Below are positions 6,320 to 31,496 of a stretch of 31,496 bases of DNA, one piece after another; the stretch's first letter is position 1, and the number at the start of each line of letters is the position of its first letter. The notes beneath the pieces were generated by a model. It was not told the DNA's origin and did no database searches. It saw nothing but the letters and a program-made list of their open reading frames with translations. Origin of the DNA: Candidatus Omnitrophota bacterium (GTDB taxonomy: Bacteria; Ratteibacteria; UBA8468; B48-G9; JAFGKM01). The translations under genes and the position numbers were made by a program. The DNA is taken from NCBI GenBank assembly GCA_016928555.1, contig JAFGKM010000021.1, positions 1 to 31,496 of the forward strand, written 5' to 3'.

Positions 6320-6323
6320 CTTT

Positions 6324-12159: not shown

Positions 12160-12759
12160 TTAAGCATATATCTCCTCTATCAAGCGGTTAAGCCCCTTGT
12201 TATTGAATAATTCCGCATAGCGCAATATTTTCCTTTTATGAAGGCCGGAAACATCAAGCCGCCCGTTGAATTCATAAGTCTTCCTGCTCACGAAATAGAG
12301 ATAATCAACCAGCGCTTTTTCTCTGTCTGCAATAAGCGCTGTTTTACCCCCGATTTTCTCCGGCAAATATCCGGTAAAAGCAGGTATTTTTATCTTATGG
12401 TAACGGAATTCCTTACCCAGCGTTTGAAATCGGGCTGTTGGTTGCGTGGTGACTGAAGTGACCGCATATACCGCTTCAGGAATCATATGATAATAGGCAA
12501 GCGCAAAAGTGAGAGAAATATATGAAGGGCGGTAAAGCGCATTGGCTGTCTCCCATTCCGAAGGGAGCCGGCTTTTTAAAGCATAGAGACTATTCCTTAA
12601 TTTAACAACTGCTCCTTTTTTGACATACCTGGTCAGAAAAAAACGTATGGATATTTCCGAAACTCCAAGTATATGCTTCAAATCAACCGGAGAGAAAAGC
12701 GCCAACTCCGTATCCATCACCTTTTTTTCCACCTCAATCCAATTTAATATTTTAGCCAT
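12160..12759 (-). CDS. abiEi: AbiEi-family type IV toxin-antitoxin antitoxin (wHTH transcriptional autoregulator).
   Basis: 199 aa. It sits immediately upstream of the AbiEii remnant in the same orientation, which is the canonical abiEi-abiEii operon order. Its size and N-terminal wHTH-like segment are consistent with AbiEi_4. Confidence 0.6.
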   Translation of the reverse strand: MAKILNWIEVEKKVMDTELALFSPVDLKHILGVSEISIRFFLTRYVKKGAVVKLRNSLYALKSRLPSEWETANALYRPSYISLTFALAYYHMIPEAVYAVTSVTTQPTARFQTLGKEFRYHKIKIPAFTGYLPEKIGGKTALIADREKALVDYLYFVSRKTYEFNGRLDVSGLHKRKILRYAELFNNKGLNRLIEEIYA

Positions 12760-13501: not shown

Positions 13502-13563
13502 ATCGCTCCTTTTTAAATGCTCCTCTCAAGTTTTAAAGATTGCCGGGATGTTTCCAATGATTC

Positions 13564-14792: not shown

Positions 14793-15225
14793 TATCGTCG
14801 GATAACTCGTTCCTGTCGTCTTTCCTGCAGGGGAAATACGCCTTCAATTGAACGCCTATCGTTTCTATCGCTTCAGCCAGGCCCTTTCCGAAATCGCCGC
14901 GGCTGAAGTTCTCTTCCATCCTGTCTTTTATCCCGTCCCAGAAGTCCGCGGGCACCTTGCTGTTAATGCCTTCGTCCCCGTAGATTAAGAATTCCCGGTT
15001 GGCGGTCACAAGATAGATTAATACGCCGTTTCTTTCTTTGGTCTTTGAAAGGCCCAGCTTCCTGAACACGCGGCCGGCCTTATCCTCAATGCTTCCCCAG
15101 CAGAACCGGCCGATGAATAACTTTATCTCGCCGGAAGTTTCTTTTTCCGCTTTATCAATTGCCCCGTCAATGAGTCTTTTTTCTTCTTCCGAAAGGAACT
15201 TTTTCGGGTCGGCCGGTCTTTCCAT
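14773..15225 (-). CDS. TPM-domain protein without a signal peptide.
   Basis: 150 aa with a TPM-like pattern (LSEEEKRLIDGAIDKAEKETSGEIKLFIG...NGVLIYLVTANREFLIYGDEGI). It overlaps the downstream TPM gene by 20 bp. An AGAGG Shine-Dalgarno sequence lies upstream. Confidence 0.65.
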   Translation of the reverse strand: MERPADPKKFLSEEEKRLIDGAIDKAEKETSGEIKLFIGRFCWGSIEDKAGRVFRKLGLSKTKERNGVLIYLVTANREFLIYGDEGINSKVPADFWDGIKDRMEENFSRGDFGKGLAEAIETIGVQLKAYFPCRKDDRNELSDDIEYGEE

Positions 15226-15377
15226 TTTGCCTCTGTTGTTTGGAATGCATGAGTTAATTCAAGCCTTTTTCAATGTAATCTTATCACCTCCTTTTCAGTG
15301 ATGTCAAACTGCGCTTTAACCGGCGGGTTGTAATTTCCGCCGGAAAGTCTTAAAATCTAAGCACAGGAGGGCACACC

Positions 15378-17770: not shown

Positions 17771-18364
17771 TTAGCGGTAATACCTGATAAGCCCCGTGAC
17801 TCTGCCGATTATTTTCACCCTGCCGTCCACCGGTATCGGCTTATAAGCCGGGTTGGCCGGCTCAAGGAAAACCCCCTTCCCCCTGCGCATAAACCTTTTA
17901 ACCGTGGCTTCGTCCTCAATCAGGGCGATGACTATTTCGCCCTCCCTGCAGGACTCCTGCGGACGCACAACCACATAGTCGCCCTCGCGGATGCCCGCTC
18001 CGGCCATACTGTCCCCCTTCACCTTAAGAGCGAAAGTTTTCCCGTCCCCGGCGAGTTTTTCGTCAACCCTTATTTCACCCTCTATGTTTTCCATGGCAAG
18101 CTCCGGCTCGCCCGCAATTATCCTTCCGGCTACGGGTATTGACGGATACATGGACTTCCTCAACAGCCTTATGCCGCGCGACACCCCCGGTATGCACTCT
18201 ATGCATCTCTTGTTCGCAAGGGCTTTCAGGTGGTCCCTTACACTGCCCGTGGAAGAGCATGAAAACCTCTTCCCTATCTCCCGTATCGTCGGAGGATATC
18301 CTTTCTCCCTCACGGTTTTCTCGATATAGCCGAATATCTCTTTCTGCCTCTCGGTCAATTCCAT
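17771..18364 (-). CDS. lexA: LexA SOS repressor (S24 autopeptidase).
   Basis: The N-terminal wHTH (MELTERQKEIFGYIEKTVREKGYPPTIREIG) and C-terminal S24 domain carry an Ala-Gly cleavage site, catalytic Ser (KGDSM) and Lys (VKRFMRRGK). The start was taken at the internal ATG at 18364, which has a GGAGGGG Shine-Dalgarno sequence. The longer ORF extending to 18445 is upstream read-through. Confidence 0.9.
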   Translation of the reverse strand: MELTERQKEIFGYIEKTVREKGYPPTIREIGKRFSCSSTGSVRDHLKALANKRCIECIPGVSRGIRLLRKSMYPSIPVAGRIIAGEPELAMENIEGEIRVDEKLAGDGKTFALKVKGDSMAGAGIREGDYVVVRPQESCREGEIVIALIEDEATVKRFMRRGKGVFLEPANPAYKPIPVDGRVKIIGRVTGLIRYYR

Positions 18365-18389
18365 GGTTTTCCCCTCCGACATGACTATA

Positions 18390-18405
18390 CCGCACATTTG
18401 TGCGG
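18390..18405 (-). promoter_or_regulatory. Perfect inverted repeat CCGCACA-tt-TGTGCGG 26 nt upstream of the lexA start codon. It is a candidate LexA operator (SOS box).
   Basis: Seen directly in the sequence: 7-bp perfect arms with a 2-nt spacer, placed where an autoregulatory operator is expected. Its sequence differs from the E. coli (CTGT-N8-ACAG) and Gram-positive (GAAC-N4-GTTC) consensi. Confidence 0.4.
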
Positions 18406-18575
18406 CTGTCAAGGACCACAGGCCTGAGAAAACGGGTAAAGACATATCTGCCGCAACAATATAGGTAGTTACCGTCCGGAAGGATATGTTATCTGCTGCT
18501 GATTACGATAAAAACCGCCGTGGCAATGCCTGTAAAATTCCGTCCGCGGTCCTTGTCTTGGCCGCCGCCTCAAGT

Positions 18576-19217
18576 TCAACGCCGGAAGGCAATTCGTTTA
18601 ATACCGCCTGCACATTTTCGCCTATTTTTGTATCCCGTTGTTATTGCAGGCCCTTCGGTGGAGAATAGTTTCTGGCTTACGACTGTAAATCCTGCGTCTG
18701 CCATTAAAGTTTTAATGCCTTCCGGACTGAAATATTTTTCCGAATATAATTTTTCCGCAATCGTGTTTTCCAGAAAATCCACGACTACTATTTTGCCTCT
18801 CTCTTTCAAAATCCTGTTGCACTCCTTGAGTGCGGACAAAGGGTGGGCAATTTCATGCAGGGAATACAGGCTTGTCACCGCTGAAAAACTTCCGTTTTTA
18901 AAATTGTTCAAATTCTCCGCATCTCCTTTTACGCATCTGATTTTTGTCTTGATTTCCCGCGGGATTTTTCTTGCAGTGTCCTTAAATTTCTCGCCGTCAA
19001 TATCCAATCCCACAACATATATGTTCTCACTCCCGGCAAGATATTCAACAAGCCCGCATCCGCCGCATCCTATATCCAGCACCCGTTCGTCCCCGGAAAG
19101 GTTCTTCATGATGCCGGCAAAAATCTTGTCTTTCAATTTGCCGTAATAATCAACTTCTTCCCCCGCATCCTTTTTCATAACCTGTTTCCCGCCTTGCCTG
19201 ATACTTTCTCCTTTCAT
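18576..19217 (-). CDS. Class I SAM-dependent methyltransferase.
   Basis: 213 aa. Motif I is VLDIGCGGCGL, with an acidic residue after beta-2 (GLDID) and motif IV. Its ATG overlaps the groES stop (ATGA). Confidence 0.8.
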   Translation of the reverse strand: MKGESIRQGGKQVMKKDAGEEVDYYGKLKDKIFAGIMKNLSGDERVLDIGCGGCGLVEYLAGSENIYVVGLDIDGEKFKDTARKIPREIKTKIRCVKGDAENLNNFKNGSFSAVTSLYSLHEIAHPLSALKECNRILKERGKIVVVDFLENTIAEKLYSEKYFSPEGIKTLMADAGFTVVSQKLFSTEGPAITTGYKNRRKCAGGIKRIAFRR

Positions 19218-19498
19218 TCCGGAATTCTGTCTGATGCTTCATACTTTACCAGAAGGTCTTCTTCAGTCAGCAGTATATAATCTCTGCCTTCCATCTTGAC
19301 TTCAGCTCCGGAAAATTCCTTGTAGACAATCCTGTCTCCCACTGCAACCTCGTCAGTCGCATCTTTTGCGACTGCAATAACCTCGCCTTCCTGAATCTTT
19401 TCTCTGGCGCTGTCAGGGATATATATTCCTCCTGATGACTTGCCTTCAGATTCAAACGGCTTTACCAGAATACGCCCGTTAACCGGTCTTATTTTCAT
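19214..19498 (-). CDS. groES: GroES (Cpn10) co-chaperonin, with no adjacent groEL.
   Basis: 94 aa beginning MKIRPVNGRILVKPFESEGKSSGGIYIPDSAREKIQEGEVIAVA, a canonical Cpn10 including the mobile loop. The next gene downstream is a methyltransferase, not groEL. Confidence 0.85.
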   Translation of the reverse strand: MKIRPVNGRILVKPFESEGKSSGGIYIPDSAREKIQEGEVIAVAKDATDEVAVGDRIVYKEFSGAEVKMEGRDYILLTEEDLLVKYEASDRIPE

Positions 19499-19512
19499 AT
19501 GAACACCTCCTT

Positions 19513-20094
19513 TCAGGTTGAAAGAATTCTGTCAATTTTTGACTTGTCAAATCCTACTACCAGATTCCCGTCTATATCAATCTGGGGCACAGCCATCTGT
19601 CCGCTGCGCCTGGCCAGCCTTTCTGCTGCATTCTGATCGCGGGATATGTCCACCTCTCTAAAAGCAACGCCCTGTTTTCGCAGATATGTCTTAACTAATC
19701 CGCAGGCCGGACATCCAGGGCTTGAGTAAACGATTACCCTGCGGACCTTTTTACCCTTATCGCTTTTATGCAGAGACGGATGCGCCCCGCATAAAACCCT
19801 GGCATAAAACTGCGAACTTTCAACGCCTTCTATCCGTCTGACAGTTTTCCCGTTTTGCAGTGCCAGTACGGTGGGCACACTGGCAACTCCGAATTGTTTA
19901 TGCAGCCCTTTAACTTTCTGAACGTCAACGATGTATACCGGCATCCCGCTGTTTTCTTTGTCAAACTCCTCAAGTTCTTTGAGAGAGCGCTTCGCGTTTG
20001 GAGAAAAATCCGCATAAAATACCACCACCAAAAAAACCTCGTGCTCTTTTTTTACCTGTTCAAAATGCGATTGGTCTTTTATCCATTCAATCAT
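19513..20094 (-). CDS. Fusion of a thioredoxin-like domain (no CxxC) with a glutaredoxin/NrdH-like domain (CPAC).
   Basis: The C-terminal half (VIVYSSPGCPACGLVKTYL...VPQIDIDGNLVVGF) is a glutaredoxin fold with a CPxC motif. The N-terminal half is Trx-like, with FSPN in place of CGPC. The ORF-track start at 20118 is a TTG abutting the ferredoxin stop, and the ATG at 20094 (MIEWIK) with a GGGAG Shine-Dalgarno sequence is more likely. Confidence 0.7.
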   Translation of the reverse strand: MIEWIKDQSHFEQVKKEHEVFLVVVFYADFSPNAKRSLKELEEFDKENSGMPVYIVDVQKVKGLHKQFGVASVPTVLALQNGKTVRRIEGVESSQFYARVLCGAHPSLHKSDKGKKVRRVIVYSSPGCPACGLVKTYLRKQGVAFREVDISRDQNAAERLARRSGQMAVPQIDIDGNLVVGFDKSKIDRILST

Positions 20095-20118
20095 TGTGAA
20101 TACTCCCGTGTCTCTCAA

Positions 20119-20496
20119 TTATAATAATCCGGAGTCTTTCATTTTCTCAAGTTCCGCCAGCGTTTGCTCGGCAACAACCTTCTCTTTGTTCCAGTGTTTT
20201 ATCATTCGCCCCAAACACTTGTTTTTCTCCTGCTCGCTGCCGAGATGCTTTGCACAGAGCTCCATGAACTTTTTTGTCTCTTCTATGTTCACCTTGACAT
20301 CCTGCGGTATTTTTTCCCCGTCGTGACGGACTGCCTGCTGGGGGCAGACGCTGTGGCATGTACCGCAATGAACGCATCCATCCATATCTATTACTGCAAC
20401 TGCATCATTGTCGCCCGCCATTGAGATTGCACCCACAGGACATTTATCAACGCAAATTTCACACCCTGTACATTTTTCCTTATCCACCCACGGCAT
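20119..20496 (-). CDS. 2x[4Fe-4S] ferredoxin-domain protein.
   Basis: 125 aa containing CTGCEICVDKCP and CVHCGTCHSVCP, two CxxCxxCxxxCP motifs. Confidence 0.85.
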   Translation of the reverse strand: MPWVDKEKCTGCEICVDKCPVGAISMAGDNDAVAVIDMDGCVHCGTCHSVCPQQAVRHDGEKIPQDVKVNIEETKKFMELCAKHLGSEQEKNKCLGRMIKHWNKEKVVAEQTLAELEKMKDSGLL

Positions 20497-20540
20497 TTTA
20501 AACCTCCTCGTAGTTGTAAAGTAGTCTTTGTTTTATTAAT

Positions 20541-21911
20541 TCAAAAAACTCTGGATTTTTTCCTGCTGTGGAATTCCCAGAAAGCGCTTTCAGCCGCCAG
20601 AGCTATCGGTTCCTTACCCGGGTCAGGAGACAACTCCGGCTGGCCGGCGCATCTTAAAGTGGTCAAGTCCAGAACGTTTAAACCGCATCTTATTGCCAGA
20701 GAAATTACGTCAATATATCTTACAGGGCATTCGGAATCGCTGACTATCTGGCCGCCTATAAGCTTCTGGCTTTTTTTGTCAAATACAAGTTTTACGGCAT
20801 AAGGCATCCGCCCCCGTATCATTGAGTGCTTGCTTATTGATTCTTCCTTCGCCGTAACCACTTCAATTCCTTCTTTTTTTGCCTCCATTGCGGTAATTCC
20901 CGCACCCGCAATAGATTTATCAAAAAACTTGGTGCAAAAACTATTTACAAAGTGGGGGAATTTGATACCGAACCCTAAAATGTTTTTGGCTATGACTCTG
21001 CCGGAGATAACTGCATTGGGGCGCAGCTGCCCGAGTGTCGGCTTTCCCGTAACATGATTTTTATATTCTATAAGGTCCCCCCCTGCATATATATCAGGAT
21101 CGGATGTCTGTAAATATTCATTGACTTTTAATCCCTTTTCCCCGATTTCCAATCCGGCTTTTTTAGCCAATTCAACATTACAGCGGGCGCCTGCAGAGAT
21201 TACAACCATATCCGCATCTATTTTTTCCCCCGAGGTTAAAAAGACCTTTTCAACGCTGTCATTACCCTCAATTTCCGTTAACCTCTGATTCAGCTTCAGT
21301 TGAACCCCATGTTCCTGCATATACGCCTGTACGGATTCAGACATATCCGGGTCCAGAATATTTGACATAATATGCCCGCACATTTCAATAAGGGTGACCT
21401 TTAATCCCTGCCGGGAAAGCAGATAGGCCTTTTCAACCCCTATGGCGCCTGCCCCCAGAAGAACGGTATTCCTTACCCGCCTTGAATTTATCCAGTTAAG
21501 AATATTAATGGCATCGTCGCTTGAACGGAGGGTAAAAACTCCCTTCAGGCCAATGCCCGGGATTGGAGGAATAACGGGCTTTGCACCGGTTGCCAAAACG
21601 AGTTTATCGTACAAATAGGTGCTTTTTTCAGATGTTGTAACGGACTTTTTTACCGGGTCTATCGCTGTTGCCGCGGCATTTACAAGTTTTATCCCCTTTT
21701 CTGTAAATATACTGTCGTCTTTATAAGAAGGGTCAACCATTACGTCCCCGCAGCAGATATACGGGGTGGCACACCGCGTCAGGAGGCCTCTTTCCTGAGG
21801 CTCCCGGATGATGACCACATCAACAGAAGGGTCTAATTTCTTTATCATCAGGGCGGCTAATGCTCCGCAGCCCGAACATCCGATTACAGCAACTTTTTTA
21901 ACCTTCGGCAT
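20541..21911 (-). CDS. FAD-dependent pyridine nucleotide-disulfide oxidoreductase (NADH oxidase / CoA-disulfide reductase family).
   Basis: The N-terminal FAD motif is KVAVIGCSGCGA and the NAD(P) motif is VLLGAGAIGVE, with a C-terminal dimerisation domain. The start is assigned to the second ATG (21911, MPKVKK), which has an AAAGGGGAG Shine-Dalgarno sequence. The ORF track extends to 21935. Confidence 0.85.
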   Translation of the reverse strand: MPKVKKVAVIGCSGCGALAALMIKKLDPSVDVVIIREPQERGLLTRCATPYICCGDVMVDPSYKDDSIFTEKGIKLVNAAATAIDPVKKSVTTSEKSTYLYDKLVLATGAKPVIPPIPGIGLKGVFTLRSSDDAINILNWINSRRVRNTVLLGAGAIGVEKAYLLSRQGLKVTLIEMCGHIMSNILDPDMSESVQAYMQEHGVQLKLNQRLTEIEGNDSVEKVFLTSGEKIDADMVVISAGARCNVELAKKAGLEIGEKGLKVNEYLQTSDPDIYAGGDLIEYKNHVTGKPTLGQLRPNAVISGRVIAKNILGFGIKFPHFVNSFCTKFFDKSIAGAGITAMEAKKEGIEVVTAKEESISKHSMIRGRMPYAVKLVFDKKSQKLIGGQIVSDSECPVRYIDVISLAIRCGLNVLDLTTLRCAGQPELSPDPGKEPIALAAESAFWEFHSRKKSRVF

Positions 21912-21992
21912 TTTTCTCTCCCCTTTAATTTTCATGGTATGTTAAATTTGGCTGTGTTTTTATTTTTTTCTCCCTCTCCCTTGATAATATTG

Positions 21993-23636
21993 TTACTTCT
22001 GCAAGATATTTCTGTTAAAATACATGTTGCCGGCTACCATATACTGGAATTCCGTCCCTTCAAGCTCATTGGGCTTTGTGTGGCGGGCAAAAACGGCTAT
22101 TCTCTCGGCATCAGCTCTTCTCCTTTTTGAAAGAAGCATGTCTCTTGCCCCTGCCAGAGCGCCATTTCCGAACCTGACAAACTTATTTTTATCTATTGGC
22201 GGATATAATCCGATTTTCATTGCATTGGAAACGTCTATGAAATTACCGAATGCCCCCGCCAAAAATATTTTTGAAACATTGTCGTAGCTTGTTCCGAAAT
22301 ACTTGACCAGCAGGTCCTGGTCCGTACGCAGTCCGGCCTTGGCCATTATCAACTGGTTTATGTCATCCTGCGAAATAGACAACCCATCGGTTATCCGGTA
22401 AGGCGAGCCAATCCTCGCCCTTTCGTCCATAACTCCAATGCGCAGAAGTTCGGCGAGCAAATCTATCACCCCGGAACCGCAGACTCCCGCCGCAGGCTTT
22501 CCCCCGAGAGTGGCGTATTCCAATTTGCCGTTGTCCGACCACACGTTTGTTATCGCCCCTTCTACGGCTCCGACGCCGCAGCTTATCTGATACCCTTCAT
22601 AGGCCCCGCCGGCCGCACAGGAAGCAGTCATTATTTTATGCCTGTTTCCAATCACAACCTCTCCGTTGGTTCCTATGTCTATAATCATCTCTATATCGCC
22701 GCTTTCATACAGCCTTGTGGATATTATATCGGCCAAGCAATCGGCTCCTGCATGGCCTCCGATAAGGGGAGGTCCGTAAACCCTGGCTTCAGGGTTAAAG
22801 CTGAAACCCATACCTGAAGCGGAGAGCGTCACAGGCTTCTTGTCCGATGGTTCAAAAGGCATGACCGCCAGCGGGCTCGGGTCCTGTCCGCAAAAAATAC
22901 TTCTCATTATGCTGTTTCCGACAATAACAACATCATAAATATATTTATTTATTGAATCAGCCGCAACCTTGAGATTTTCTTCCATTTCTTCAAGACTGCT
23001 TTTTATGCCGTTAACCACAACCGCCTGAAGTTCTTTTAAACCGCCTTCGTGGGTCATGGCATAGCCGCCCCTTGAAATTACGTCGTTTCCATAAGCAATC
23101 TGAGGGTTTTTACTGGCGATAGTTCCTATGTTTTTGCCTGTCTCCAGGTCTACAACCTGCATTACCAGAGTGGTTGTTCCTATGTCTACAGCCAGCCCCA
23201 GCATCCTGCCCTTGTAACTTCCGAGCTCTTCCCCTGTGTGATAAAACACCTTGCCGTCTTTTCTGAAAACGCAGGGAGAAATTTCAACGCCCGTATCAAT
23301 ACTTTCAGTCAGGATGGTGTATTTCCCGAAATCCCTGATAAAAATTTCAATGTCGGAATCATCCCGTGCAACTCTTGCCTGGCAGGCCAGTCTGTATCCC
23401 GGCGTCAATTTTGCCCTGTCAAGAAACTTCTGTTCGGCCGGTGTAATTTTCGTTAATGAGGACAATCCTTTTTCAACCCTTATCAAGTCTTTCTCGCATC
23501 TCCCCTGTCCGCCGCACTCACTGTTAATTTCTATGCCGCCCGCACGCCTTATATGTTCCAGCACTGTCCGGCCTACAACAAGATTTATCCCTTTTTTTCT
23601 CCCTGTCTCATACTGGGGGAAATACATCTTTCCCAT
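21993..23636 (-). CDS. RACo-like protein: N-terminal 2Fe-2S ferredoxin domain plus an ASKHA-fold ATPase (DUF4445-type reductive activator of corrinoid / metalloenzyme family).
   Basis: 547 aa. The N-terminus (INSECGGQGRCEKDLIRV...LACQARV) is a plant-type 2Fe-2S fold. It is followed by LAVDIGTTT, an ASKHA phosphate-1 motif, and further actin-like ATPase motifs. An AAGGAGG Shine-Dalgarno sequence lies upstream. Confidence 0.75.
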   Translation of the reverse strand: MGKMYFPQYETGRKKGINLVVGRTVLEHIRRAGGIEINSECGGQGRCEKDLIRVEKGLSSLTKITPAEQKFLDRAKLTPGYRLACQARVARDDSDIEIFIRDFGKYTILTESIDTGVEISPCVFRKDGKVFYHTGEELGSYKGRMLGLAVDIGTTTLVMQVVDLETGKNIGTIASKNPQIAYGNDVISRGGYAMTHEGGLKELQAVVVNGIKSSLEEMEENLKVAADSINKYIYDVVIVGNSIMRSIFCGQDPSPLAVMPFEPSDKKPVTLSASGMGFSFNPEARVYGPPLIGGHAGADCLADIISTRLYESGDIEMIIDIGTNGEVVIGNRHKIMTASCAAGGAYEGYQISCGVGAVEGAITNVWSDNGKLEYATLGGKPAAGVCGSGVIDLLAELLRIGVMDERARIGSPYRITDGLSISQDDINQLIMAKAGLRTDQDLLVKYFGTSYDNVSKIFLAGAFGNFIDVSNAMKIGLYPPIDKNKFVRFGNGALAGARDMLLSKRRRADAERIAVFARHTKPNELEGTEFQYMVAGNMYFNRNILQK

Positions 23637-23688
23637 TTTACCTGCCTCCTTATATAAAAAAATTTTTATTGCATCATCTCAATTTGAC

Positions 23689-23716
23689 TTGACAATTACC
23701 CTCTTTAAGTTATAAT
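23689..23716 (+). promoter_or_regulatory. Near-consensus sigma70 promoter (-35 TTGACA 23689..23694, 16-nt spacer, -10 TATAAT 23711..23716) for the arsR-ferredoxin operon. It overlaps an AT-rich repeated element (TTATAAT-TATA-TTATAAT) that is a candidate ArsR operator.
   Basis: Both consensus hexamers are perfect. The ATTATAAT element is self-complementary and occurs twice across the -10 region. Confidence 0.6.
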
Positions 23717-23752
23717 TATATTATAATATTAGAATGTTTGCAAGGGAGGATA

Positions 23753-24046
23753 ATGTATAACAGCAAATACAGAGAGATTTCTGATTTTTTCAACGCCCTT
23801 TCCCATCCGGTACGGGTTGAGATAGTTGCAGAACTGTTGAACGGGCAGAAATGCGTAAGCGATATGAGGGAACTTATAAAGGTAAACCAGCCTAATGTGT
23901 CCCAGCATCTTTCTGTTTTGAAATCGGCAGGGGTTGTTGACTGGGAGCAGACAGGCAAAAGAAAATGCTACTTCTTAAAAAACCCTGCCCGGCTGAGAAA
24001 AATTTTAAATTCTATGAAGGAGAAAAAAAATGTTTCAGGCGGATAA
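23753..24046 (+). CDS. ArsR/SmtB-family metalloregulatory transcriptional repressor.
   Basis: 97 aa from the ATG at 23753, with a GGGAGG Shine-Dalgarno sequence. The track ORF starts at a TTG at 23738. The wHTH is ALSHPVRVEIVAELLNGQKCVSDMRELIKVNQPNVSQHLSVLKSAGVV, with a Cys in helix alpha-3 (CVSD). Confidence 0.85.
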   Translation: MYNSKYREISDFFNALSHPVRVEIVAELLNGQKCVSDMRELIKVNQPNVSQHLSVLKSAGVVDWEQTGKRKCYFLKNPARLRKILNSMKEKKNVSGG

Positions 24047-24356
24047 GGAAAAATGCATAGGCTGCGGCGATTGCGCCAAGGTCTGTCCCGTTAAGGCAAT
24101 ATCAATAGAAGATGACAAGGCAGTCGTCAGCGATAAATGCGTTGATTGCGGCAGATGCGCCCAAGTCTGCCCTGTTGGAGCAATTTATCCCGTGGCAGTA
24201 AAACCTCAAAATTTCTATCCCGGCCCGGGTCAAGGATTTCCCTTTTCGCCCTTCGGCGCAGGAGGCGGCCAAGGAAGAGGTATGGGAAGGGGAAGAGGAA
24301 TGGGCCGCGGCCCCCGAGCCGGAAGGGGCGGAGGCAGAGGCGGCGGAAAGCGGTAA
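24030..24356 (+). CDS. 2x[4Fe-4S] ferredoxin with a C-terminal Gly/Arg-rich (RGG-like) tail.
   Basis: 108 aa with CIGCGDCAKVCP and CVDCGRCAQVCP. The C-terminal tail is GAGGGQGRGMGRGRGMGRGPRAGRGGGRGGGKR. An AAGGAG Shine-Dalgarno sequence lies upstream. It overlaps the arsR-family gene end by 17 nt. Confidence 0.8.
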   Translation: MFQADKEKCIGCGDCAKVCPVKAISIEDDKAVVSDKCVDCGRCAQVCPVGAIYPVAVKPQNFYPGPGQGFPFSPFGAGGGQGRGMGRGRGMGRGPRAGRGGGRGGGKR

Positions 24357-24368
24357 ACCCGCTTTTTT
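24347..24368 (+). terminator. Putative intrinsic terminator after the ferredoxin gene.
   Basis: The hairpin is AAAGCGG-taaac-CCGCTTT followed by TTT, and the stop codon TAA lies in the loop. Confidence 0.5.
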
Positions 24369-24687
24369 CATAGTATTATCCGGTCAGGAAATTTCCGAAC
24401 CCCGCATAAAATCTGCAGTTATTCGTGCATTTACTGCCAGATTGGAAGAACCCTTAACATGCATGCCGAAAGAAAACCGTTCTATAACCCGAAAGAGCTG
24501 CCAAAATCCGTGTAGAGTGTCAGGCTTTAGACCTCTCTTGATAGATTTCATGGCACAACTTTGCCCCAAAACCAACTCGCCCTTTTACTCTGTTCCAGCA
24601 GGGATTCAAACTGCTCCGGAGAGGAATGAGAACATGCAGAATTATTGGTAACCTTTGTATATTTTCGAAAAAACAATATACTGTTAC

Positions 24688-24713
24688 GGTAAGTAATTCA
24701 GGTTAAGTAATTC
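24688..24713 (+). repeat. Tandem direct repeat GGTAAGTAATTC / GGTTAAGTAATTC 15 nt upstream of the antiporter start.
   Basis: The repeat is seen directly. It lies at the 3' end of a ~370-nt untranslated leader (24357..24727). Confidence 0.6.
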
Positions 24714-24727
24714 GGACCGAGGAAAAA

Positions 24728-26413
24728 ATGTTTGATATTGGAAATAAGATTCCTATGCTTTCCAGCATTGAGTTGAATGCGATTTTTCTGCTTGGCTTGA
24801 TTCTCTTTGTCGGCATAATGGGCGCAAGGAGTTTTCAAAAACTCAAATTACCGCAGGTTGTAGGATATATCATAGTAGGAATTATCCTGGGACAGTCCGG
24901 TTTAAATATAATAAATAAAGAGATTATTGAAACCTTTGTACCGTTTAACTATTTCGCGCTGGGAATTATAGGATTCACAATAGGCGGAGAACTCAATACG
25001 GAAGTCTTCCGGCGCTACGGCAGGCAATTTGTAATAATATTATTGGCAGAAGGATTAACGGCTTTCTTCGCGGTGTTTCTTCTTGTGGGCATTCTGGGAA
25101 CATTTATTCTGGGAAACAGCGCATACGCATGGGCTCTCGGGTTATTACTGGGGGCTATTGCCTCCGCCACTGCTCCTGCTGTTACCGCCAATGTCCTCTG
25201 GGAGTACAAGGCTCGCGGGCCCCTGACCACAACAGTTCTGGGGATAGTGGCATTGGATGACGGACTGGCGCTGATATTGTTTGCTCTCGCCAGCAGTATT
25301 GCCGCCGTAATACTGGGAGCCAACCCATCCTTGTCTTCCGCAATATCCCGGGCCGTCTATGAAATCGGAATGGGAATTTCTGTCGGATTGATATTCGGCC
25401 TGGGTCTCATACAGATTCTAAGGAAATATGCGGAAAAAGACAAGATTCTGGTTTTTTCTTTATGCGGCATACTTTTTGCGCTGGGGCTGGCATTGATAAT
25501 GAAGATAGACATGTTATTGGTAGCGATGACTATGGGCGTTATTCTGATAAACAGGGAGCCCCGCTTGAGCAGGGATGTATTTAAATTGGTTTCCGGGTTT
25601 GCAATGCCTTTTTACATACTGTTTTTCGTGCTTGTAGGAGCGAAATTCAATGTGCATACTACAACCGCAAAGGCTATCGCTCTCGTTTTGATTTACCTCT
25701 TAAGCAGGACCGCGGGTAAAATGGCTGGAGCCTCCTTTGGTGCAAAAATTGCAGGCGCGAGCAAAACCGTCCGTAAATATCTGCCTTATTGCCTCTTAGG
25801 CCAGGCAGGCGTTGCTATCGGTCTTTCCATTCTTGCATATCAGCACTTTCCGGGAATGATAGGCAGCTCCATAATTGTCGTAGTAACCCTCGCTACATTT
25901 GTATCCGAGATTTCAGCGCCTCTCTGTGTCAGATATGCCGTTGTCAATGCGCAGGAAGCCGGGTTGAATATAACCGAGGATGATGTGCTTAGCAAAACAA
26001 AGGTCGGCGAGGTGATGGATAAAAACCCTCCAAGGGTATATGAAAACACGCCGATTAAAGATATTCTGGATATTTTCGGCGAAAGCAGTTATCAAACCTA
26101 TCCGGTAGTCAACAGGGGCAATACTTTAAGAGGAATCATTACCATTGAGAGTATAAGGAAAGCATTCGCTTACAGCGAAATGGGGAGACTTATTATTGCC
26201 CATGATATCATGGAACCGGCGGCAACAAGGCGGATATCCACGGATTCTTCCCTTCTGGAAGCTGAAGAGATTATGGATAAGTATGGCGTTGATTATCTGC
26301 CCATTGTCAACGGAAAGTCGATTTTAGAGGGTTTTATGGAAAAACGAGACATACACAGGTTTGTTTCTTCCAGATTAATCAAGGTCAAGGAAGAATTAGA
26401 TTCAAGGGGCTGA
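24728..26413 (+). CDS. Cation:proton antiporter (CPA/Na+-H+ exchanger family) with a C-terminal CBS-domain pair.
   Basis: 561 aa with ~12 TM helices in the first ~400 aa and a Na_H_Exchanger-like pattern. The C-terminus carries two CBS motifs (VGEVMDKNPPRVYENTPIKDILDIF..., HDIMEPAATRRISTDSSLLEAEEIM...). A GAGGA Shine-Dalgarno sequence lies upstream. Confidence 0.8.
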   Translation: MFDIGNKIPMLSSIELNAIFLLGLILFVGIMGARSFQKLKLPQVVGYIIVGIILGQSGLNIINKEIIETFVPFNYFALGIIGFTIGGELNTEVFRRYGRQFVIILLAEGLTAFFAVFLLVGILGTFILGNSAYAWALGLLLGAIASATAPAVTANVLWEYKARGPLTTTVLGIVALDDGLALILFALASSIAAVILGANPSLSSAISRAVYEIGMGISVGLIFGLGLIQILRKYAEKDKILVFSLCGILFALGLALIMKIDMLLVAMTMGVILINREPRLSRDVFKLVSGFAMPFYILFFVLVGAKFNVHTTTAKAIALVLIYLLSRTAGKMAGASFGAKIAGASKTVRKYLPYCLLGQAGVAIGLSILAYQHFPGMIGSSIIVVVTLATFVSEISAPLCVRYAVVNAQEAGLNITEDDVLSKTKVGEVMDKNPPRVYENTPIKDILDIFGESSYQTYPVVNRGNTLRGIITIESIRKAFAYSEMGRLIIAHDIMEPAATRRISTDSSLLEAEEIMDKYGVDYLPIVNGKSILEGFMEKRDIHRFVSSRLIKVKEELDSRG

Positions 26414-26453
26414 TTCCTGCATGGCTCCGGCGTCAGAGAGAAAAAAAACATGA

Positions 26454-27797
26454 CTACATTTCCCAGGGGGGGAACAATAAGCCCAACACCTTTTTAACCG
26501 ACCAGTCCCTCTGCGGCTTAAGCCGTCTTATTACTGCAAGCAGGAAAAAAAGGACCAGGAGCATTATCTGGAAATAGGTGCGATATAAAGGCAGTCCTTC
26601 CAGACCAAATATGCCGAGAATGTACAGAATGCCGCCGCCCAAGAACGCACCGGAGATACCTGCAGCAACTCCCGACAAAATACGCATGATAAGTATGCTG
26701 CCAACCCTGTGAGAATCTTCAACAACATTGAGAAAAGCGTGGCTGAGACAGATAATAATCCCCGTTTTACAAAAGCCGGCGGTGAAAAAGGATAATAGAG
26801 CGGGGACCATGAGAAAGTCAGCCGGGGAGAAGGCCCAGTAAGATGTCACAATAAAAAGCCCTATAACATACAGGATTAAAAGAGACCTTGGCCCTGCCCT
26901 GTCTGCAATAAAGCCGTTTATCGTGGCTGATAAAATTCCGCCTATAAGCAGGAACGCAGAAAATACGAGTACTGTGAAATCCGATACTCCGTAGCCGTTT
27001 TTTACAGATATAATCATAAAGGGAACTATAAGAGTGAAGGCGACAAATCCCGCACACCATGCAAACAAAAGCCTGCGGGTCTTTTCAAATTTCCAGATAC
27101 CGGATAACGAGTAGGACAAAGGCCTCTGCGCCGAAATTCTCGGAGCGCTTGATTCCGGGATGCCTGCAAGTACGGTGCTGGCATAAAACCCTGCAATACA
27201 GCCGCTGATAAGAATCAGCTGGTAAATCCATAAGGCATCGCTGTATTTCAATATAAATGCTATAAGCAGCATGGTAAGCAAGTGTGTAATATTGATTCGC
27301 ATCGTAAATCCGGAAAGGAAAATCCCCCGTTCAGCCGGATCGGTAATTTCGCCCGCCAGCGGCGTGGCAGCAATTGAGCCGATACTGCGAAACAGGGCAA
27401 AGCCGAAAGCCCCTGCCATGATAAGGGTTGTAACTGCCTGCTGCGATACTGCCTTTCCTGCCTGCGGCGCAATGACCATTAAAGATGCCGACACATAGCG
27501 GAAAAACCAGCCGAGCGCCCATGTCTGCGCCAACCCTATACGTGATACCATTGTTTTTCCTGCTACCATGAAGGGCATTGATAAGTGGACAAAAGAGGCC
27601 AGTACCGCAACCGCAGGCGCGCTTAAACCATTACGGATGGCATATAGGATAAGGATGCTTTCAAGCAGGCAGGCCACCGATATACCGTTAAGCAAACCGA
27701 ATTTGAGATATAAACGCCGGCCTTCTGCTTTTTCTTGCAGAGTAAGAGACAAGGCAAAGTTTTTTTCTTTTAAAAAACGGCTTTTGGTTTTTACCAT
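26454..27797 (-). CDS. MFS-like polytopic transporter.
   Basis: 447 aa with ~12 hydrophobic helices in two 6-helix halves. No substrate-specific motif is recognised. Confidence 0.65.
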   Translation of the reverse strand: MVKTKSRFLKEKNFALSLTLQEKAEGRRLYLKFGLLNGISVACLLESILILYAIRNGLSAPAVAVLASFVHLSMPFMVAGKTMVSRIGLAQTWALGWFFRYVSASLMVIAPQAGKAVSQQAVTTLIMAGAFGFALFRSIGSIAATPLAGEITDPAERGIFLSGFTMRINITHLLTMLLIAFILKYSDALWIYQLILISGCIAGFYASTVLAGIPESSAPRISAQRPLSYSLSGIWKFEKTRRLLFAWCAGFVAFTLIVPFMIISVKNGYGVSDFTVLVFSAFLLIGGILSATINGFIADRAGPRSLLILYVIGLFIVTSYWAFSPADFLMVPALLSFFTAGFCKTGIIICLSHAFLNVVEDSHRVGSILIMRILSGVAAGISGAFLGGGILYILGIFGLEGLPLYRTYFQIMLLVLFFLLAVIRRLKPQRDWSVKKVLGLLFPPWEM

Positions 27798-28000
27798 TTA
27801 AATAATGCGGTACATTAATTGAGTTATTTTTTTCGGCGGTTTTTAAAACTTTATTGATGATTGCTTCACGGAATAACAGTATATCACCGTACTCCTGCTT
27901 TGTCTATCTTCTTCCTCTTGCCGCCATATAAAGATGTAACCCGCAGGTATACAAAACAAGAAAAATTTAAACAGCCGGCAGGAAATTCAACATTTTCGTA

Positions 28001-28069
28001 TTCCGCCGCAAAGTTGCCACCCATAACGGTAAGGTTGCCGCCTGAAACGGTGATGGCTTCCGCCGCAAA
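28001..28069 (+). repeat. Nested direct repeats upstream of the nuclease-helicase operon: TTCCGCCGCAAA x2 (28001 and 28058) flanking GTTGCCRCC-N3-AACGGTRA x2.
   Basis: The sequence reads TTCCGCCGCAAA-GTTGCCACC-CATAACGGTAAG-GTTGCCGCC-TGAAACGGTGATGG-CTTCCGCCGCAAA. The repeats are direct, not inverted, and lie 60-130 nt upstream of the ATG at 28130. Confidence 0.6.
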
Positions 28070-28129
28070 TCAGAGCTTGCTTTTAACCTCCCGAGAGATT
28101 AAAATAGACGAAAGGTTTTTCCCAATGAA

Positions 28130-29617
28130 ATGAAAATGAAAAACACACCCTTCCTGTCCAAGAGCAAATATGTAGATGGGCTTAAATGCCTTAAGCTTCT
28201 GTGGTATGAGTATAACCGCAGGGAAGAGATACCGGAGACAGATGACGGGACAACGGCTTTATTTGAGCAGGGCAAAGCCGTCGGAAAGCTGGCGCACAAA
28301 CTCTTTCCCGGAGGAATCCTGCTGGAAAGGGACGCAGAGCCGGAAAAGCAGGCTGAAAAATCCCTGAAAGCCGCCAGCCTCGGAAAACCGCTGTTTGAAG
28401 CGGGGTTTATCTTCAACCGGTTATACGCCCTGGCAGATATCCTTCTACCTGTTTCCGGTGGTGTCTGGGACCTTATAGAAGTTAAAAGCGCAACTTCCGT
28501 CAAAGAAGTATATTGCCGCGATGCGGCATTCCAGAAACATGTATATGAAGGCGCAGGACTGCGTATCCGGAAGTGTTATATTATGTATGTAAATAATCAA
28601 TACGTAAGGCAAGGCGATATAGACCCTGAAAGATTGTTGACCAAAGAAGACATTACAAGACAGGTAGATGCTATTATTCCGTCTGTGGAAGCAAATGCCC
28701 AACAGATGCTTCAGGCTATACGGGAACACACTTGTCCCGATATAAAAATCGGACAGCATTGCAATTCTCCATACCCGTGTCCTCTTGAAAGCGTTTGCCG
28801 GGACTTTCTCCCCCGGGATGGAAATGTTCTTTGCCTGGTTTCGCCCGGAAAAAGGCCGTATGAACTGATAGAAAAAGGAATATACAGCATATCCGATATT
28901 CCCGGTGACGGCGGCCTTAATGAAAAACAGAAAATCCAGGTTGAATGCCATAAGACAGGACAGCCGCATATCAATAAAGGCGGGATAAAGCAATTCCTCA
29001 ATACGCTTAAATACCCCCTGTATTTCCTTGATTTTGAGACCATCGCCCCTGCAATACCCGCCTATGACAACTCAAGGCCGTATGAAACAATCCCCTTTCA
29101 GTATTCCCTGCATATTGTCAGAAAAGAGGGGATGGAGCCGGAGCATCACTCATACCTTGCGCCCGGTAATAAAGACCCGCGGCCCGAGATATTGAAGCGG
29201 TTGAAGCAATTGCTTGGGAATTCCGGTTCTGTCATTGCCTATAACGCCGCATTTGAGAAGACTGCCATGAGGAAGGCTGTTGAAATATATACCGAGTACA
29301 GGGAATGGCTAAAATTGATAGAAGAGCGGGTTATTGACCTGCTGACCCCTTTCCGCAGTTTTCTTTACTACCACCCCTGCCAGGAAGGAAGCGCTTCCAT
29401 CAAAAACGTCCTTCCCGCGATGACAAACTCCGGTTATTCCTATATGGAAATCGCTGAAGGCGGCACGGCAAGCATTGAATATTCCAGAATAACCTTCGGG
29501 GAAGACGTTCCTGAAGAAGAACGGCAGCGCATCCTCTCCGCTCTTGAAAAGTATTGCGCTCTCGATACAAAAGGCATGATAGAAATAGTGGATGAACTAA
29601 GAAAACTATGCAGATAG
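28130..29617 (+). CDS. Two-nuclease-domain protein: N-terminal Cas4/RecB-like PD-(D/E)XK nuclease with a probable 4-Cys Fe-S cluster, plus a C-terminal DUF2779-like RNase H-fold (DEDD-type) exonuclease domain.
   Basis: 495 aa. The N-domain has a D...ExK core (LADILLP...WDLIEVKS) followed by the QxxxY motif (AAFQKHVY), and Cys residues at LKC plus C-x8-C-x5-C-x5-C (CPDIKIGQHCNSPYPCPLESVC). The C-domain carries YFLDFETIA (Exo I-like D/E) and AYNAAFEKT (Exo II-like). The gene's stop overlaps the helicase start by 10 nt. Confidence 0.7.
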   Translation: MKMKNTPFLSKSKYVDGLKCLKLLWYEYNRREEIPETDDGTTALFEQGKAVGKLAHKLFPGGILLERDAEPEKQAEKSLKAASLGKPLFEAGFIFNRLYALADILLPVSGGVWDLIEVKSATSVKEVYCRDAAFQKHVYEGAGLRIRKCYIMYVNNQYVRQGDIDPERLLTKEDITRQVDAIIPSVEANAQQMLQAIREHTCPDIKIGQHCNSPYPCPLESVCRDFLPRDGNVLCLVSPGKRPYELIEKGIYSISDIPGDGGLNEKQKIQVECHKTGQPHINKGGIKQFLNTLKYPLYFLDFETIAPAIPAYDNSRPYETIPFQYSLHIVRKEGMEPEHHSYLAPGNKDPRPEILKRLKQLLGNSGSVIAYNAAFEKTAMRKAVEIYTEYREWLKLIEERVIDLLTPFRSFLYYHPCQEGSASIKNVLPAMTNSGYSYMEIAEGGTASIEYSRITFGEDVPEEERQRILSALEKYCALDTKGMIEIVDELRKLCR

Positions 29618-31143
29618 AGATTACGGAACAATTCCAGCAGGCTATAGACCTTATAGAACATGGCAATAAGAATGTTTTCATTACCGGCAGGGCGGGCACC
29701 GGCAAATCCACTCTTTTAAGATACCTGAGAACTATTACATACAAAAAGGCGGTTGTCCTCGCTCCCACAGGCGTTTCAGCTCTCAACGTGCAGGGGCAGA
29801 CCATCCACTCCTTTTTCCGGTTCAAGCCCGATATTACCCTTGATAAGGTAAAAAAAATAGTCAAAAACCCTGCCGACAATATCTACCAGAAGCTTGACAC
29901 CGTAATCATAGACGAGATATCCATGGTAAGGGCGGATATACTTGATTGCGTTGACAGGTTCATGCGGCTCAACTGCAGCAGGGTCAGCCCGTTCGCAGGC
30001 AAGCAGATGGTATTTTTCGGAGACCCTTACCAACTGCCTCCGGTCATCACCCCGACAGAGAGAAAAATATTCAAGGGCAAGTATTCCTCGGGCTACTTTT
30101 TCTCCGCCGACGTGATGAAGGAGATTTCCTTTGACATAGTGGAACTGGACAGGATATTCCGGCAGACCGACGAGGGTTTCATAAGGATACTCAACAGCAT
30201 AAGAAACAATACGGTTACAGACACGATGCTTGATGAACTTAATACTCGCTGCATGCCTGAATTTGAACCTGATAGAGACAGCTTTTTCATCTCACTTACA
30301 ACAAAAAACGACAAGGCGCTGGCGATGAATGAAAGAAGGCTGGCGAAGCTTCAGGGAAAGGAATACACATTTGAGGCGGAGATTAAGGGGAAGTTTGAGA
30401 AAGCCGCGTATCCCACCGACAAGGTTTTTCGCCTGAAGGAAAACGCACAGGTAATGATGCTTAACAACGACCAGCAGAAACGCTGGGTCAACGGAAGTAT
30501 CGGCAGGATAATCATGGTAGAGCCGGAAGGAGAAACAATCATCGTCCAGTTGCTCGGCGGTAAAACAGTTGACGTGACTCCTTACGAATGGGATATATTC
30601 CGCTACGTCTATGATGAGGATACAGACCAAATTGATACGGAACAGGTAGGCTCTTTCAAACAGTATCCTTTGAGGTTGTCATGGGCGGTGACTATCCATA
30701 AAGCGCAGGGCAAGACATTTGACAATGTGATACTGGACATAGGCGCCGGGGCGTTCACTCCAGGGCAGGTATATGTCGGCTTGAGCAGGTGCGTATCCCT
30801 TGAAGGGCTGGTGCTGAAGAAAAAGATACGGAAACAGGATATCTTCATAGACTGGAACGTGGTGAAGTTCATGACGGGATACAGATACGCCATATCGGAA
30901 AAGGAAATGCCGGTTGAAAAGAAAATAGAGATTATAAAAGATGCCATAAAAAAGAAGAGCGAACTGGAGATAATATACCTGAAAAAGAACGACGAGAAAT
31001 CCATGCGGGTAATCCTGCCGGAATGCGTGGGGAAGATGGAGTTTATGGGTAAGAGCTTTACGGGAATAAGAGCATTTTGCCGCAAGAGCAACGAAGAGAG
31101 AACCTTCCGCGCAGACAGGATTCTGTCTCTCCGGTTGTTATAG
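29608..31143 (+). CDS. PIF1-family SF1B DNA helicase with a C-terminal WYL domain.
   Basis: 511 aa. Walker A is GRAGTGKST and Walker B is DEISMV. The Pif1 signature is FFGDPYQLPPV, followed by RQTDEGFIRILNSIR, and motifs V/VI are TIHKAQGKTFDNV. The C-terminal ~80 aa (LEIIYLKKNDEKSMRVILPE...AFCRKSNEERTFRADRILSLRLL) match the WYL-domain pattern, ending in the F-R-x-D-R-I motif. Confidence 0.9.
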   Translation: MQIEITEQFQQAIDLIEHGNKNVFITGRAGTGKSTLLRYLRTITYKKAVVLAPTGVSALNVQGQTIHSFFRFKPDITLDKVKKIVKNPADNIYQKLDTVIIDEISMVRADILDCVDRFMRLNCSRVSPFAGKQMVFFGDPYQLPPVITPTERKIFKGKYSSGYFFSADVMKEISFDIVELDRIFRQTDEGFIRILNSIRNNTVTDTMLDELNTRCMPEFEPDRDSFFISLTTKNDKALAMNERRLAKLQGKEYTFEAEIKGKFEKAAYPTDKVFRLKENAQVMMLNNDQQKRWVNGSIGRIIMVEPEGETIIVQLLGGKTVDVTPYEWDIFRYVYDEDTDQIDTEQVGSFKQYPLRLSWAVTIHKAQGKTFDNVILDIGAGAFTPGQVYVGLSRCVSLEGLVLKKKIRKQDIFIDWNVVKFMTGYRYAISEKEMPVEKKIEIIKDAIKKKSELEIIYLKKNDEKSMRVILPECVGKMEFMGKSFTGIRAFCRKSNEERTFRADRILSLRLL

Positions 31144-31443
31144 AGGTTTGTTTCTCTCAACGGATTATATTAATATCCCTTTTGTCCGAATCTCTCCAGG
31201 GGCTTCTCCATCCAGCAATAGACCTCTTCCCGCTTTTGAAGAAATTCCGCAATATTCCCATTCTATCCCCCTCGGAATTCATTCAAGCGGTCAATATATG
31301 ACCAATTCCAGTTCCACCGCTCCCTTTCTAAAAAAAGTCAACAAGGTCCCTCTCAGTTTCTGAATAGATTTGTCACACTTCCAAGACTCACAGAATGAAC
31401 CTTCAGACTTGGAAACGGCGGAAAGCCCTGTGGCTGTGGGGAG

Positions 31444-31496
31444 TGCGAGGGGGGGGAGTTGAACCCCCATGCCTTGCGGCACTGGATCCTAAGTCC
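31444..31496 (-). tRNA. tRNA-Leu (anticodon UAG), 3' portion only. The gene continues beyond the window end.
   Basis: The reverse strand reads ..GGACUUAGGAUCCAG, with anticodon loop CUUAGGA (U33, UAG, G37). A long variable arm (UGCCGCAAGGCAU, class II tRNA) follows, then the T-arm GGGGG-UUCAACU-CCCCC, the acceptor 3' strand CCCUCGC, and discriminator A. CCA is not encoded. Confidence 0.65.

Follow-up and report, generated by a model that had tools for sequence, protein, structure and literature searches.

What does a nuclease gene do when it overlaps a gene for a DNA helicase, and do the two products act as one enzyme? We analyzed a stretch of 31,496 nucleotides (nt) from Candidatus Omnitrophota bacterium (assembly GCA_016928555.1, contig JAFGKM010000021.1, positions 1 to 31,496 of the forward strand; hereafter, the window), which carries near its end a gene for a DUF2779-family dual nuclease (gene 1) followed by a gene for a Pif1-family helicase of superfamily 1B (SF1B) with a C-terminal WYL domain (gene 2). 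The two genes probably form a translationally coupled operon, kept in a small group of close relatives. Our preferred reading, to which we give a probability of about 0.5, is that the operon encodes a coupled two-subunit helicase-nuclease acting on DNA ends, with genome maintenance as the role we favor; a dedicated role in defense and a chance adjacency of two independent enzymes are the alternatives weighed here.

Two known proteins encoded by overlapping genes

Open reading frame (ORF) calls place the two genes at 28130..29617 and 29608..31143, both on the forward strand, and bear out the 10-nt overlap described in an earlier reading made from the sequence alone (the sequence-only reading). 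The overlap, 29608..29617, is ATGCAGATAG, in which the ATG of gene 2 lies at 29608 and the TAG of gene 1 at 29615-29617. The start of gene 1 had to be moved: the ATG at 28130 is not conserved in the related locus L085, while the ATG at 28136 is kept in relatives and is also the choice of NCBI. The coordinates of the genes, their domains and the features around them are collected in Table 1.

Table 1. Features of the DUF2779/Pif1-WYL locus, in window coordinates
Feature	Position	Strand	Details and evidence
Conserved 5' leader / putative operon promoter	28057..28135	+	TAAAAT -10-like hexamer; proximal TTCCGCCGCAAA copy
TTCCGCCGCAAA, exact 12-nt direct repeat	28001-28012 and 28058-28069	.	Repeat search
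Gene 1, DUF2779-family dual nuclease	28136..29617	+	493 amino acids (aa); PF11074 match
Cas4/RecB-like PD-(D/E)XK nuclease domain	28136..28825	+	aa 1 to ~230
DEDDy-type 3'-5' exonuclease domain	29012..29614	+	aa 293-493
Gene 2, Pif1-family SF1B helicase with C-terminal WYL	29608..31143	+	511 aa; Pfam and PDB matches
WYL domain of gene 2	30925..31134	+	aa 440-509; PF13280, 27.2 bits (cut-off 21.8), E 3.8e-6
PIN_3 toxin remnant, last 20 residues	31236..31295	+	tblastn, 85% identity to residues 120-139 of the L086 toxin
3' part of a class II transfer RNA (tRNA)	31444..31496	-	Interrupted by the contig end; 3' end faces gene 2

The product of gene 1 is 100% identical to an NCBI entry, 'DUF2779 domain-containing protein, Candidatus Omnitrophica'. 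Its sole Pfam match is DUF2779 (PF11074; E 1.1e-40, 139.3 bits against a cut-off of 23.3, aa 298-423), NCBIfam adds a weak sub-threshold match to the UU173 family, and Cas_Cas4 (PF01930) gave no match at E<=0.1. Comparison of the sequence with PDB chains returned nothing at E<=1, and it was fold comparison alone that gave matches. In the AlphaFold2 model (pLDDT 88.9, pTM 0.85), the N-terminal half matched Cas4 (8d3l_I, E 2.9e-5; 4r5q; 4ic1; 7mi4), Exo5, ACE1 and the AdnAB nuclease domains in Foldseek and also resembles Dna2 nucleases, and the C-terminal half resembles DEDD exonucleases, with RNase T as the Foldseek match.

Motif conservation was analyzed in an alignment of 38 gene 1 homologs (52-84% identity), with residues numbered on the 493-aa protein. 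In the N-terminal half C18, D101, E115, K117, Q133, C209, C215 and C221 are invariant, and so are D299-F-E301-T, E374 and Y473-C-x-x-D477 in the C-terminal half; D112, Y137, Y369 and N370 are kept in at least 90% of the homologs. These residues make up a PD-(D/E)XK triad (D / E-x-K) with a QxxxY motif (Q133, Y137) in the first half and, in the second, D299-x-E301, N370-x3-E374 and Y473-x3-D477, a DEDD set with tyrosine (DEDDy-like). C18, C209, C215 and C221 would form a putative iron-sulfur (Fe-S) site. The proposal that gene 1 joins a Cas4-like nuclease to a DEDD exonuclease is thus upheld by the Pfam match, the invariant motifs and the fold matches, and the motifs on which it was built (D..ExK, QxxxY, four cysteines, DFET and a YNAAFE-type motif) are real and conserved across the 38 homologs.

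This architecture has been described. Within the RNase H-like superfamily, PF11074 was assigned as family F.17 to the clade of 3'-5' exonucleases, and its fusion to DUF83/Cas4 was noted (Majorek et al. 2014, PMC3985635). More recently MMSYN1_0389, a quasi-essential DUF2779 gene of JCVI-syn3.0, was described as a fusion of a Cas4-like and a DEDD domain in which the histidine is replaced by tyrosine (mSphere 2026, PMC13621843). The protein encoded in the window has the same order of domains, a Cas4-like PD-(D/E)XK nuclease and then a DEDD exonuclease with tyrosine, and keeps the D/E/K triad; it retains all four Fe-S cysteines, whereas MMSYN1_0389 has two only. An overlap with a Pif1 gene is not reported in either of these papers.

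Gene 2, whose product is also 100% identical to an NCBI entry, matches PIF1 (PF05970; E 1.1e-26, 94.2 bits), AAA_30, AAA_19 and WYL in Pfam, and its WYL domain matches the PADLOC WYL model as well (E 6e-10). The helicase motifs are intact (Walker A GRAGTGKS, DEIS, GDPYQL and TIHKAQG), and two PDB chains match over the full length: 8bns_A, from Sulfurihydrogenibium (SsPif1; E 5.2e-172), and 8bnv_A, from Deferribacter (DdPif1, 8BNV/8BNX; E 1.7e-158). The assignment of gene 2 to the Pif1 family with a WYL domain is therefore secure. In TePif1 and DdPif1, WYL is an accessory module that binds the 5' side of single-stranded DNA (ssDNA); 5'→3' unwinding together with ssDNA binding by WYL was shown for TePif1, from Thermotoga elfii, and modeled for DdPif1 (PMC9964779). 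By analogy with these enzymes, with which it shares full-length homology, a helicase core followed by a C-terminal WYL and a size of ~510 aa, gene 2 would encode a 5'→3' helicase whose WYL domain binds ssDNA. TePif1, DdPif1 and SsPif1 were studied as solo helicases, and the paper attributes WYL to certain Pif1 helicases of thermophilic bacteria, with no discussion of the operons or neighbors of Pif1-WYL genes (PMC9964779). In contrast to that thermophilic range, we found Pif1-WYL helicases (~510-550 aa) to be widespread in Aminicenantes, Atribacteria, WOR-1, Patescibacteria, Nitrospirae and Armatimonadota, many of them uncultured lineages of environmental metagenomes.

The overlap and the block are kept in close relatives

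All four DUF2779 loci with at least 72% identity and readable downstream DNA, the window included, have the two genes paired with the same overlap. The three besides the window are L085 (gene 1 84% and gene 2 93% identical), L138/L139 (72%, and ~89% over the first 215 aa of gene 2) and L086/87/88/95 (75% and 73%). Relative to the window, L085, L086 and L138 show at most a 1-nt change in the 10-nt overlap, which reads ATGCAAATAG in L138. A further locus, L005 (gene 1 71%), finishes in ATGCAGGTAG followed by a reading frame that starts MQVEKFVE, and because of this ending it probably carries the pair too.

The pair also has sharp borders. Nucleotide homology between the window and L085 begins at 28057, ~80 nt before gene 1, extends to 31144, 1 nt after the Pif1 stop codon, and resumes only at lexA (17771-18370, 91%). 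Outside these borders each lineage has other neighbors: AbiEi/AbiEii downstream of the pair in L085; an RHH-PIN module upstream and ARPP-1, MerR, an AbiEi_4-like gene and DUF4411 downstream in L086; and, in the window, a PIN remnant and then the tRNA downstream. Since the borders of homology are sharp and the flanks differ in each lineage, the module is a discrete block in a locally fluid spot rich in toxin-antitoxin genes.

A second association of the two families was found on L109, an unrelated viral contig, in the reversed order: a Pif1 gene (40% identity, no WYL) is followed after a 4-nt gap by a DUF2779 gene (34%), and the pair (4332-7479) adjoins a ResIII-endonuclease gene and terminase genes. 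Four observations speak for joint action of the two products in this lineage: the overlap has been kept across ~25% protein divergence; the block is sharply bounded; the high-identity DUF2779 subclade always comes with Pif1; and an independent, reversed pair exists.

A possible two-subunit helicase-nuclease

If the products do work together, the operon would join two widespread and normally stand-alone proteins into one helicase-nuclease. In the mechanism we propose, a 5' single-stranded tail would be the loading site of the Pif1-WYL helicase; its WYL domain would hold the 5' ssDNA, and its motor would travel 5'→3' and open the duplex. Both strands separated in this way would then be degraded by the DUF2779 protein, the Fe-S Cas4-like domain attacking the 5'-ended strand and the DEDDy domain the 3'-ended one. 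Exo5, which is among the fold matches of gene 1, is a 5'→3' ssDNA exonuclease. Cas4 is a 5'→3' ssDNA exonuclease as well (PMC5704561). The net outcome may be a resection or destruction of DNA ends, flaps and stalled intermediates of the kind performed by RecBCD/AddAB or Dna2, and the role would be accessory genome maintenance, either repair or the clearing of linear or damaged DNA; as with RecBCD, the same activity could also protect the cell against linear DNA of foreign origin. The helicase-nuclease logic that the sequence-only reading saw in the pair is reasonable in our judgement, and its domain calls were right.

Several known machines share parts of this design. In eukaryotic Dna2 an Fe-S RecB-type nuclease is fused to an SF1B helicase; in the window the two are separate polypeptides, and while the motor of Dna2 is of the Dna2/Upf1 type, the one encoded here is of the Pif1 type and comes with WYL and an extra DEDDy exonuclease. 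AddAB, RecBCD and AdnAB resemble the proposed enzyme in being multi-subunit, with one nuclease site per strand polarity; the Cas4-like domain of gene 1 resembles the nuclease domains of AdnA and AdnB, and RecD is an SF1B relative of Pif1. They differ in that the window pair lacks an SF1A UvrD-like motor and shows no sign of Chi recognition, and in that its nuclease for the 3' strand has a DEDD fold rather than being a second RecB fold. Neither protein contains a full UvrD/Rep-type (SF1A) core, gene 2 having only a sub-threshold UvrD_C_2 fragment, and gene 2 scored far below the cut-offs of the recD and RecD2 models. Because of the separate polypeptides, the Pif1-type motor and the DEDD second nuclease, we conclude that the pair is not Dna2, RecBCD, AddAB or AdnAB.

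The comparison with CRISPR-associated Cas4 rests on the RecB-like fold (8d3l_I, 4ic1 and 7mi4) and on the four invariant cysteines with their putative Fe-S binding. The usual spacing of the Cas4 cysteines is CX2CX5C, as opposed to CX5CX5C in gene 1, and there are no cas genes among the annotated ORFs of the window; the N-terminal domain is at most a 'solo Cas4-like' domain. The helicase of the MrfAB operon of B. subtilis, MrfA, is of the SF2 DExH type, and the DEDDh exonuclease MrfB lacks a Cas4 domain. COG2251, finally, a further example of a Cas4-like nuclease linked to a helicase, unites DUF83 with an RNase H-like exonuclease and tandem AAA domains (PMC3985635), and the exonuclease of these COG2251/TM0106-type fusions belongs to PF13482, not to PF11074. 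The architecture had been put forward as one not recognized among named systems, which does not hold for the proteins taken singly, since each belongs to a published family (Majorek 2014 and mSphere 2026 for DUF2779; 8BNS/8BNV for the helicase). What is new in the operon is how its known parts are combined, and this combination has a narrow distribution.

Is the pair a defense system?

The combination of a nuclease and a helicase is also the logic of Nhi, Hna, Gabija, Hachiman, UvrD-Cas4 and YprA-Cas4. Cas4-like nucleases became linked to helicases repeatedly, UvrD-Cas4 and YprA-Cas4 being examples, and helicase-linked Cas4-like nucleases have been proposed as components of defense (Hudaiberdiev 2017, PMC5704561). 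The operon could therefore be a dedicated anti-phage or anti-plasmid system, in which WYL or Pif1 would sense phage ssDNA or replication intermediates and the dual nuclease would destroy the invader or, by abortive infection, the host DNA. We regard this as a possible role, and a doubtful one. It would fit the variable flanks described above, with their toxin-antitoxin and abortive-infection genes, and the position of the pair at the 3' side of a tRNA gene. Against it stands the comparison with PADLOC-DB v2, in which gene 1 had no match at E<=0.01 and gene 2 only partial matches, to the generic helicase and WYL regions of the PDC-S68, RecD-like, WYL and Nhi models, the last covering part of the helicase at E 2e-5; no named or candidate system was matched by the pair, which had been presented as a candidate defense system.

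The surroundings of DUF2779 genes at large point both ways. The 140 immediate neighbors at the metagenome loci carry 144 Pfam families, among which WYL is the commonest (5 of 140, two of them in Pif1-WYL genes; WYL proteins also lead in a second set, with 4 of 116), followed by SIR2, ResIII and HD_3 with three each and LexA, GmrSD and HsdR with two each. PADLOC recognized GajA, type I restriction enzymes (2), BrxL, IetA (2) and PbeA (2) among these neighbors, which favors defense; clear defense genes are a minority, ~8% of the 140 by a rough tally from the top-25 list, and most contexts are unremarkable, which does not. At L089 (3780-8146) the DUF2779 gene (67%) is followed by a Gabija pair, in which GajA matches its PADLOC model at E 1e-293 and the gene after it, for a shortened UvrD-type helicase, looks like GajB. 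DUF2779 occurs on 33 of 72,556 plasmids, mostly of Arcobacter and Helicobacter, a further point for defense. One of them, plasmid p63 of Aliarcobacter butzleri (L096, 4914-8343), carries in order a PDDEXK_4 nuclease, DUF2779 and a (P-loop)-WYL-WCX protein. Another, pM830MA of Aliarcobacter cryaerophilus (L097, 1-13006), carries an apparent operon in which a NACHT/DUF4145 NTPase gene overlaps the DUF2779 gene by 14 nt, the order being an SbcC-like ATPase, NACHT, DUF2779, a 779-aa protein with no Pfam match, an SF1 (AAA_11/AAA_12) helicase and a dGTPase; it looks like an uncharacterized cluster of defense type.

At 32 IMG/VR loci, a sample biased towards islands, the neighbors of DUF2779 are mainly methylases, ResIII, GmrSD, BrxL, HsdR, Mrr, OLD and WYL-WCX regulators, so that restriction, BREX, GmrSD and OLD dominate. 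A scan of IMG/VR for close relatives of Pif1-WYL gave nothing, and neither did a tblastn search with gene 1 against 50,697 GenBank phage records. The family has been filed under 'immunity connections' (mSphere 2026, PMC13621843); the member in the minimal Mycoplasma genome described in the same paper is quasi-essential and therefore argues for a maintenance role, and the distant Pif1-WYL helicases stand alone among housekeeping genes.

Horizontal acquisition of the locus as defense cargo, suggested from its place between a tRNA gene and a divergent control region, found no support. No integrase was found among the annotated ORFs, the 3' end of the tRNA has no second copy (att-type direct repeat) in the window, the module has a G+C content of 0.468 against 0.488 in the rest of the window, which is no marked shift, gene 1 has no PADLOC match, and the window is otherwise housekeeping. 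Direct evidence of mobility, whether from an integrase, a repeated tRNA 3' end or composition, is thus missing on the visible side of the tRNA, in which the contig ends.

The boldest form of the defense reading, that DUF2779 dual nucleases are a large unrecognized class of defense-island effectors and the DUF2779/Pif1-WYL operon a self-contained anti-phage system, appears improbable to us. If it were true, the WYL helicase would detect and unwind phage ssDNA intermediates and the nuclease would degrade both strands, so that bacteria possibly devoid of RecBCD would have an immunity module resembling it.

Is the adjacency meaningless?

The remaining alternative is that two DNA-metabolism genes were juxtaposed by chance in one Omnitrophota ancestor and have been inherited together, each acting alone. 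It draws on results that also weigh against a coupled helicase-nuclease. Both families are overwhelmingly stand-alone: clustering at 50% identity leaves 11,403 DUF2779 representatives (E<=1e-3), and nearly all are single proteins of ~490 aa. None of 84 loci with 34-71% identity to gene 1 (4 from genomes and 80 from metagenomes; 52 with at least 1.5 kilobases (kb) downstream) has a Pif1 homolog near DUF2779 in the flanks searched; the pairing is gone at 67% and 66% gene 1 identity, with Pif1 missing at L089 (67%) and also at L007. Clustering of the neighbors at 90 DUF2779 loci produced no conserved partner, with no cluster in more than five loci. On the helicase side, Pif1 orthologs with no adjacent DUF2779 are found at L090 (88%), L091 (77%), L092-94 (76%) and L137 (72%), amounting to about half of the close orthologs, and the paired members are not monophyletic in the Pif1 tree. 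Even beside the reversed pair of L109 there is a counterexample, as its phage relative L136 (Pif1 92% identical) shows a clean absence of DUF2779 at that position. One more result weighs against the coupled enzyme: a search of the window that allowed up to 3 mismatches located no copy of the candidate LexA operator considered below, CCGCACATTTGTGCGG, close to the operon.

The expectation that the pair would be syntenic in other genomes therefore holds in four lineages with at least 72% identity and probably in a fifth (71%), and fails at the 84 more distant loci and in half of the close Pif1 orthologs; the pairing is confined to one narrow lineage. The pair is also not at a universally conserved core position, which the sequence-only reading had set out as the mark of a housekeeping repair function. 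What makes chance adjacency unlikely in our view is that the overlap persisted through ~25% protein divergence even as its whole surroundings were exchanged, that an independent reversed pair exists where we estimate ~0.1 such events by chance in ~120 loci, and that a helicase with a Cas4-like nuclease is a recurrent functional pairing. We thus keep the coupled helicase-nuclease as the preferred reading.

Flanking sequences and the rest of the window

Upstream of gene 1, the window is homologous to L085 from 28057 and to L138 from 28073, and unrelated to them farther upstream. The sequence-only reading had described a repeat-containing 330-bp control region here. The intergenic region measures 338 nt and does contain one exact 12-nt repeat, TTCCGCCGCAAA; in the closest relative, L085, conservation is limited to the proximal ~80 nt of the region and, of the two repeat copies, to the proximal one. 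This 80-nt leader may hold the operon promoter, for which TTGCTT-17-TAAAAT is a candidate found by eye. Because a consensus promoter scan did not flag this site, we infer the promoter only; counts from the promoter and terminator scans showed no excess over shuffled sequence.

Downstream, an intact PIN toxin matching the remnant stands upstream of the pair in L086, and 31236-31295, located between gene 2 and the tRNA, appears to be a toxin-antitoxin module in decay. The flanking tRNA-Leu gene of the sequence-only reading survives as a 3' fragment on the minus strand. Read by eye, the last 53 nt comprise an anticodon loop (CUUAGGA), a long variable arm, a T-arm (GGGGG-UUCAACU-CCCCC) and the acceptor strand with discriminator A finishing at 31444, and a leucine tRNA with anticodon UAG is plausible on this reading. 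The T-arm alone scores against the tRNA clan (E 0.0023 in an E-value search); the fragment is incomplete at the contig end, and ARAGORN and Rfam (gathering threshold) reported no RNA gene in the window.

Otherwise the window is ordinary chromosome, with genes for LepA, a PPDK-like enzyme, DUF3300, an SPFH protein, an M15 peptidase and TPM proteins, lexA with dinB directly downstream of it, thioredoxin and reductase genes, RACo, a Na+/H+ exchanger and an unannotated 447-aa ORF (26454..27797) divergent from gene 1. L085 has a divergent lexA, 93% identical to that of the window, at a distance of 320 nt from the operon, a point for the coupled enzyme. Between these two points the window has 9.7 kb (18371-28056) where L085 has 234 nt (644-877), a large indel with ~90% identity on either side; the extra DNA encodes a methyltransferase, a Trx-Grx fusion, a pyridine-nucleotide disulphide oxidoreductase, RACo, the Na+/H+ exchanger and the 447-aa ORF.

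Just upstream of lexA (true start about 18364) lies CCGCACATTTGTGCGG, a perfect 16-nt palindrome (18390-18405) that occurs once in the window and falls within a 25-nt block 96% conserved in L085 (780-804). It is a candidate LexA operator of this Omnitrophota lineage. SOS control of the operon was considered because lexA is the divergent neighbor in L085, and was dropped for the window, where the candidate operator is not in the upstream region of the operon.

Two other places in the window have counterparts in relatives. In L091 the Pif1-WYL gene (77%) and CorA lie between the M15 peptidase gene and two TPM genes that are adjacent in the window (12830-15233), so the Pif1-WYL gene changes its chromosomal position among close relatives. 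The segment 11674-12781 has 74-77% nucleotide identity to an AbiEii/AbiEi-like pair of L092 (8938-10252) and contains an ORF (12160..12759) with no Pfam match; it may be a toxin-antitoxin module of the AbiE type.

What the operon suggests for the DUF2779 family

Pairings of a helicase with a Cas4-like nuclease are already a known theme, and the locus alone will be no surprise to specialists. The recurrence of DUF2779 beside Gabija, BREX, restriction and NACHT genes, together with the reversed pair of L109, provides new and modest leads for the discovery of defense systems. The main value of the operon is that it offers a testable hypothesis for a large, uncharacterized family: its association with the biochemically tractable Pif1-WYL helicase suggests that DUF2779 proteins may degrade helicase-unwound DNA from both polarities.

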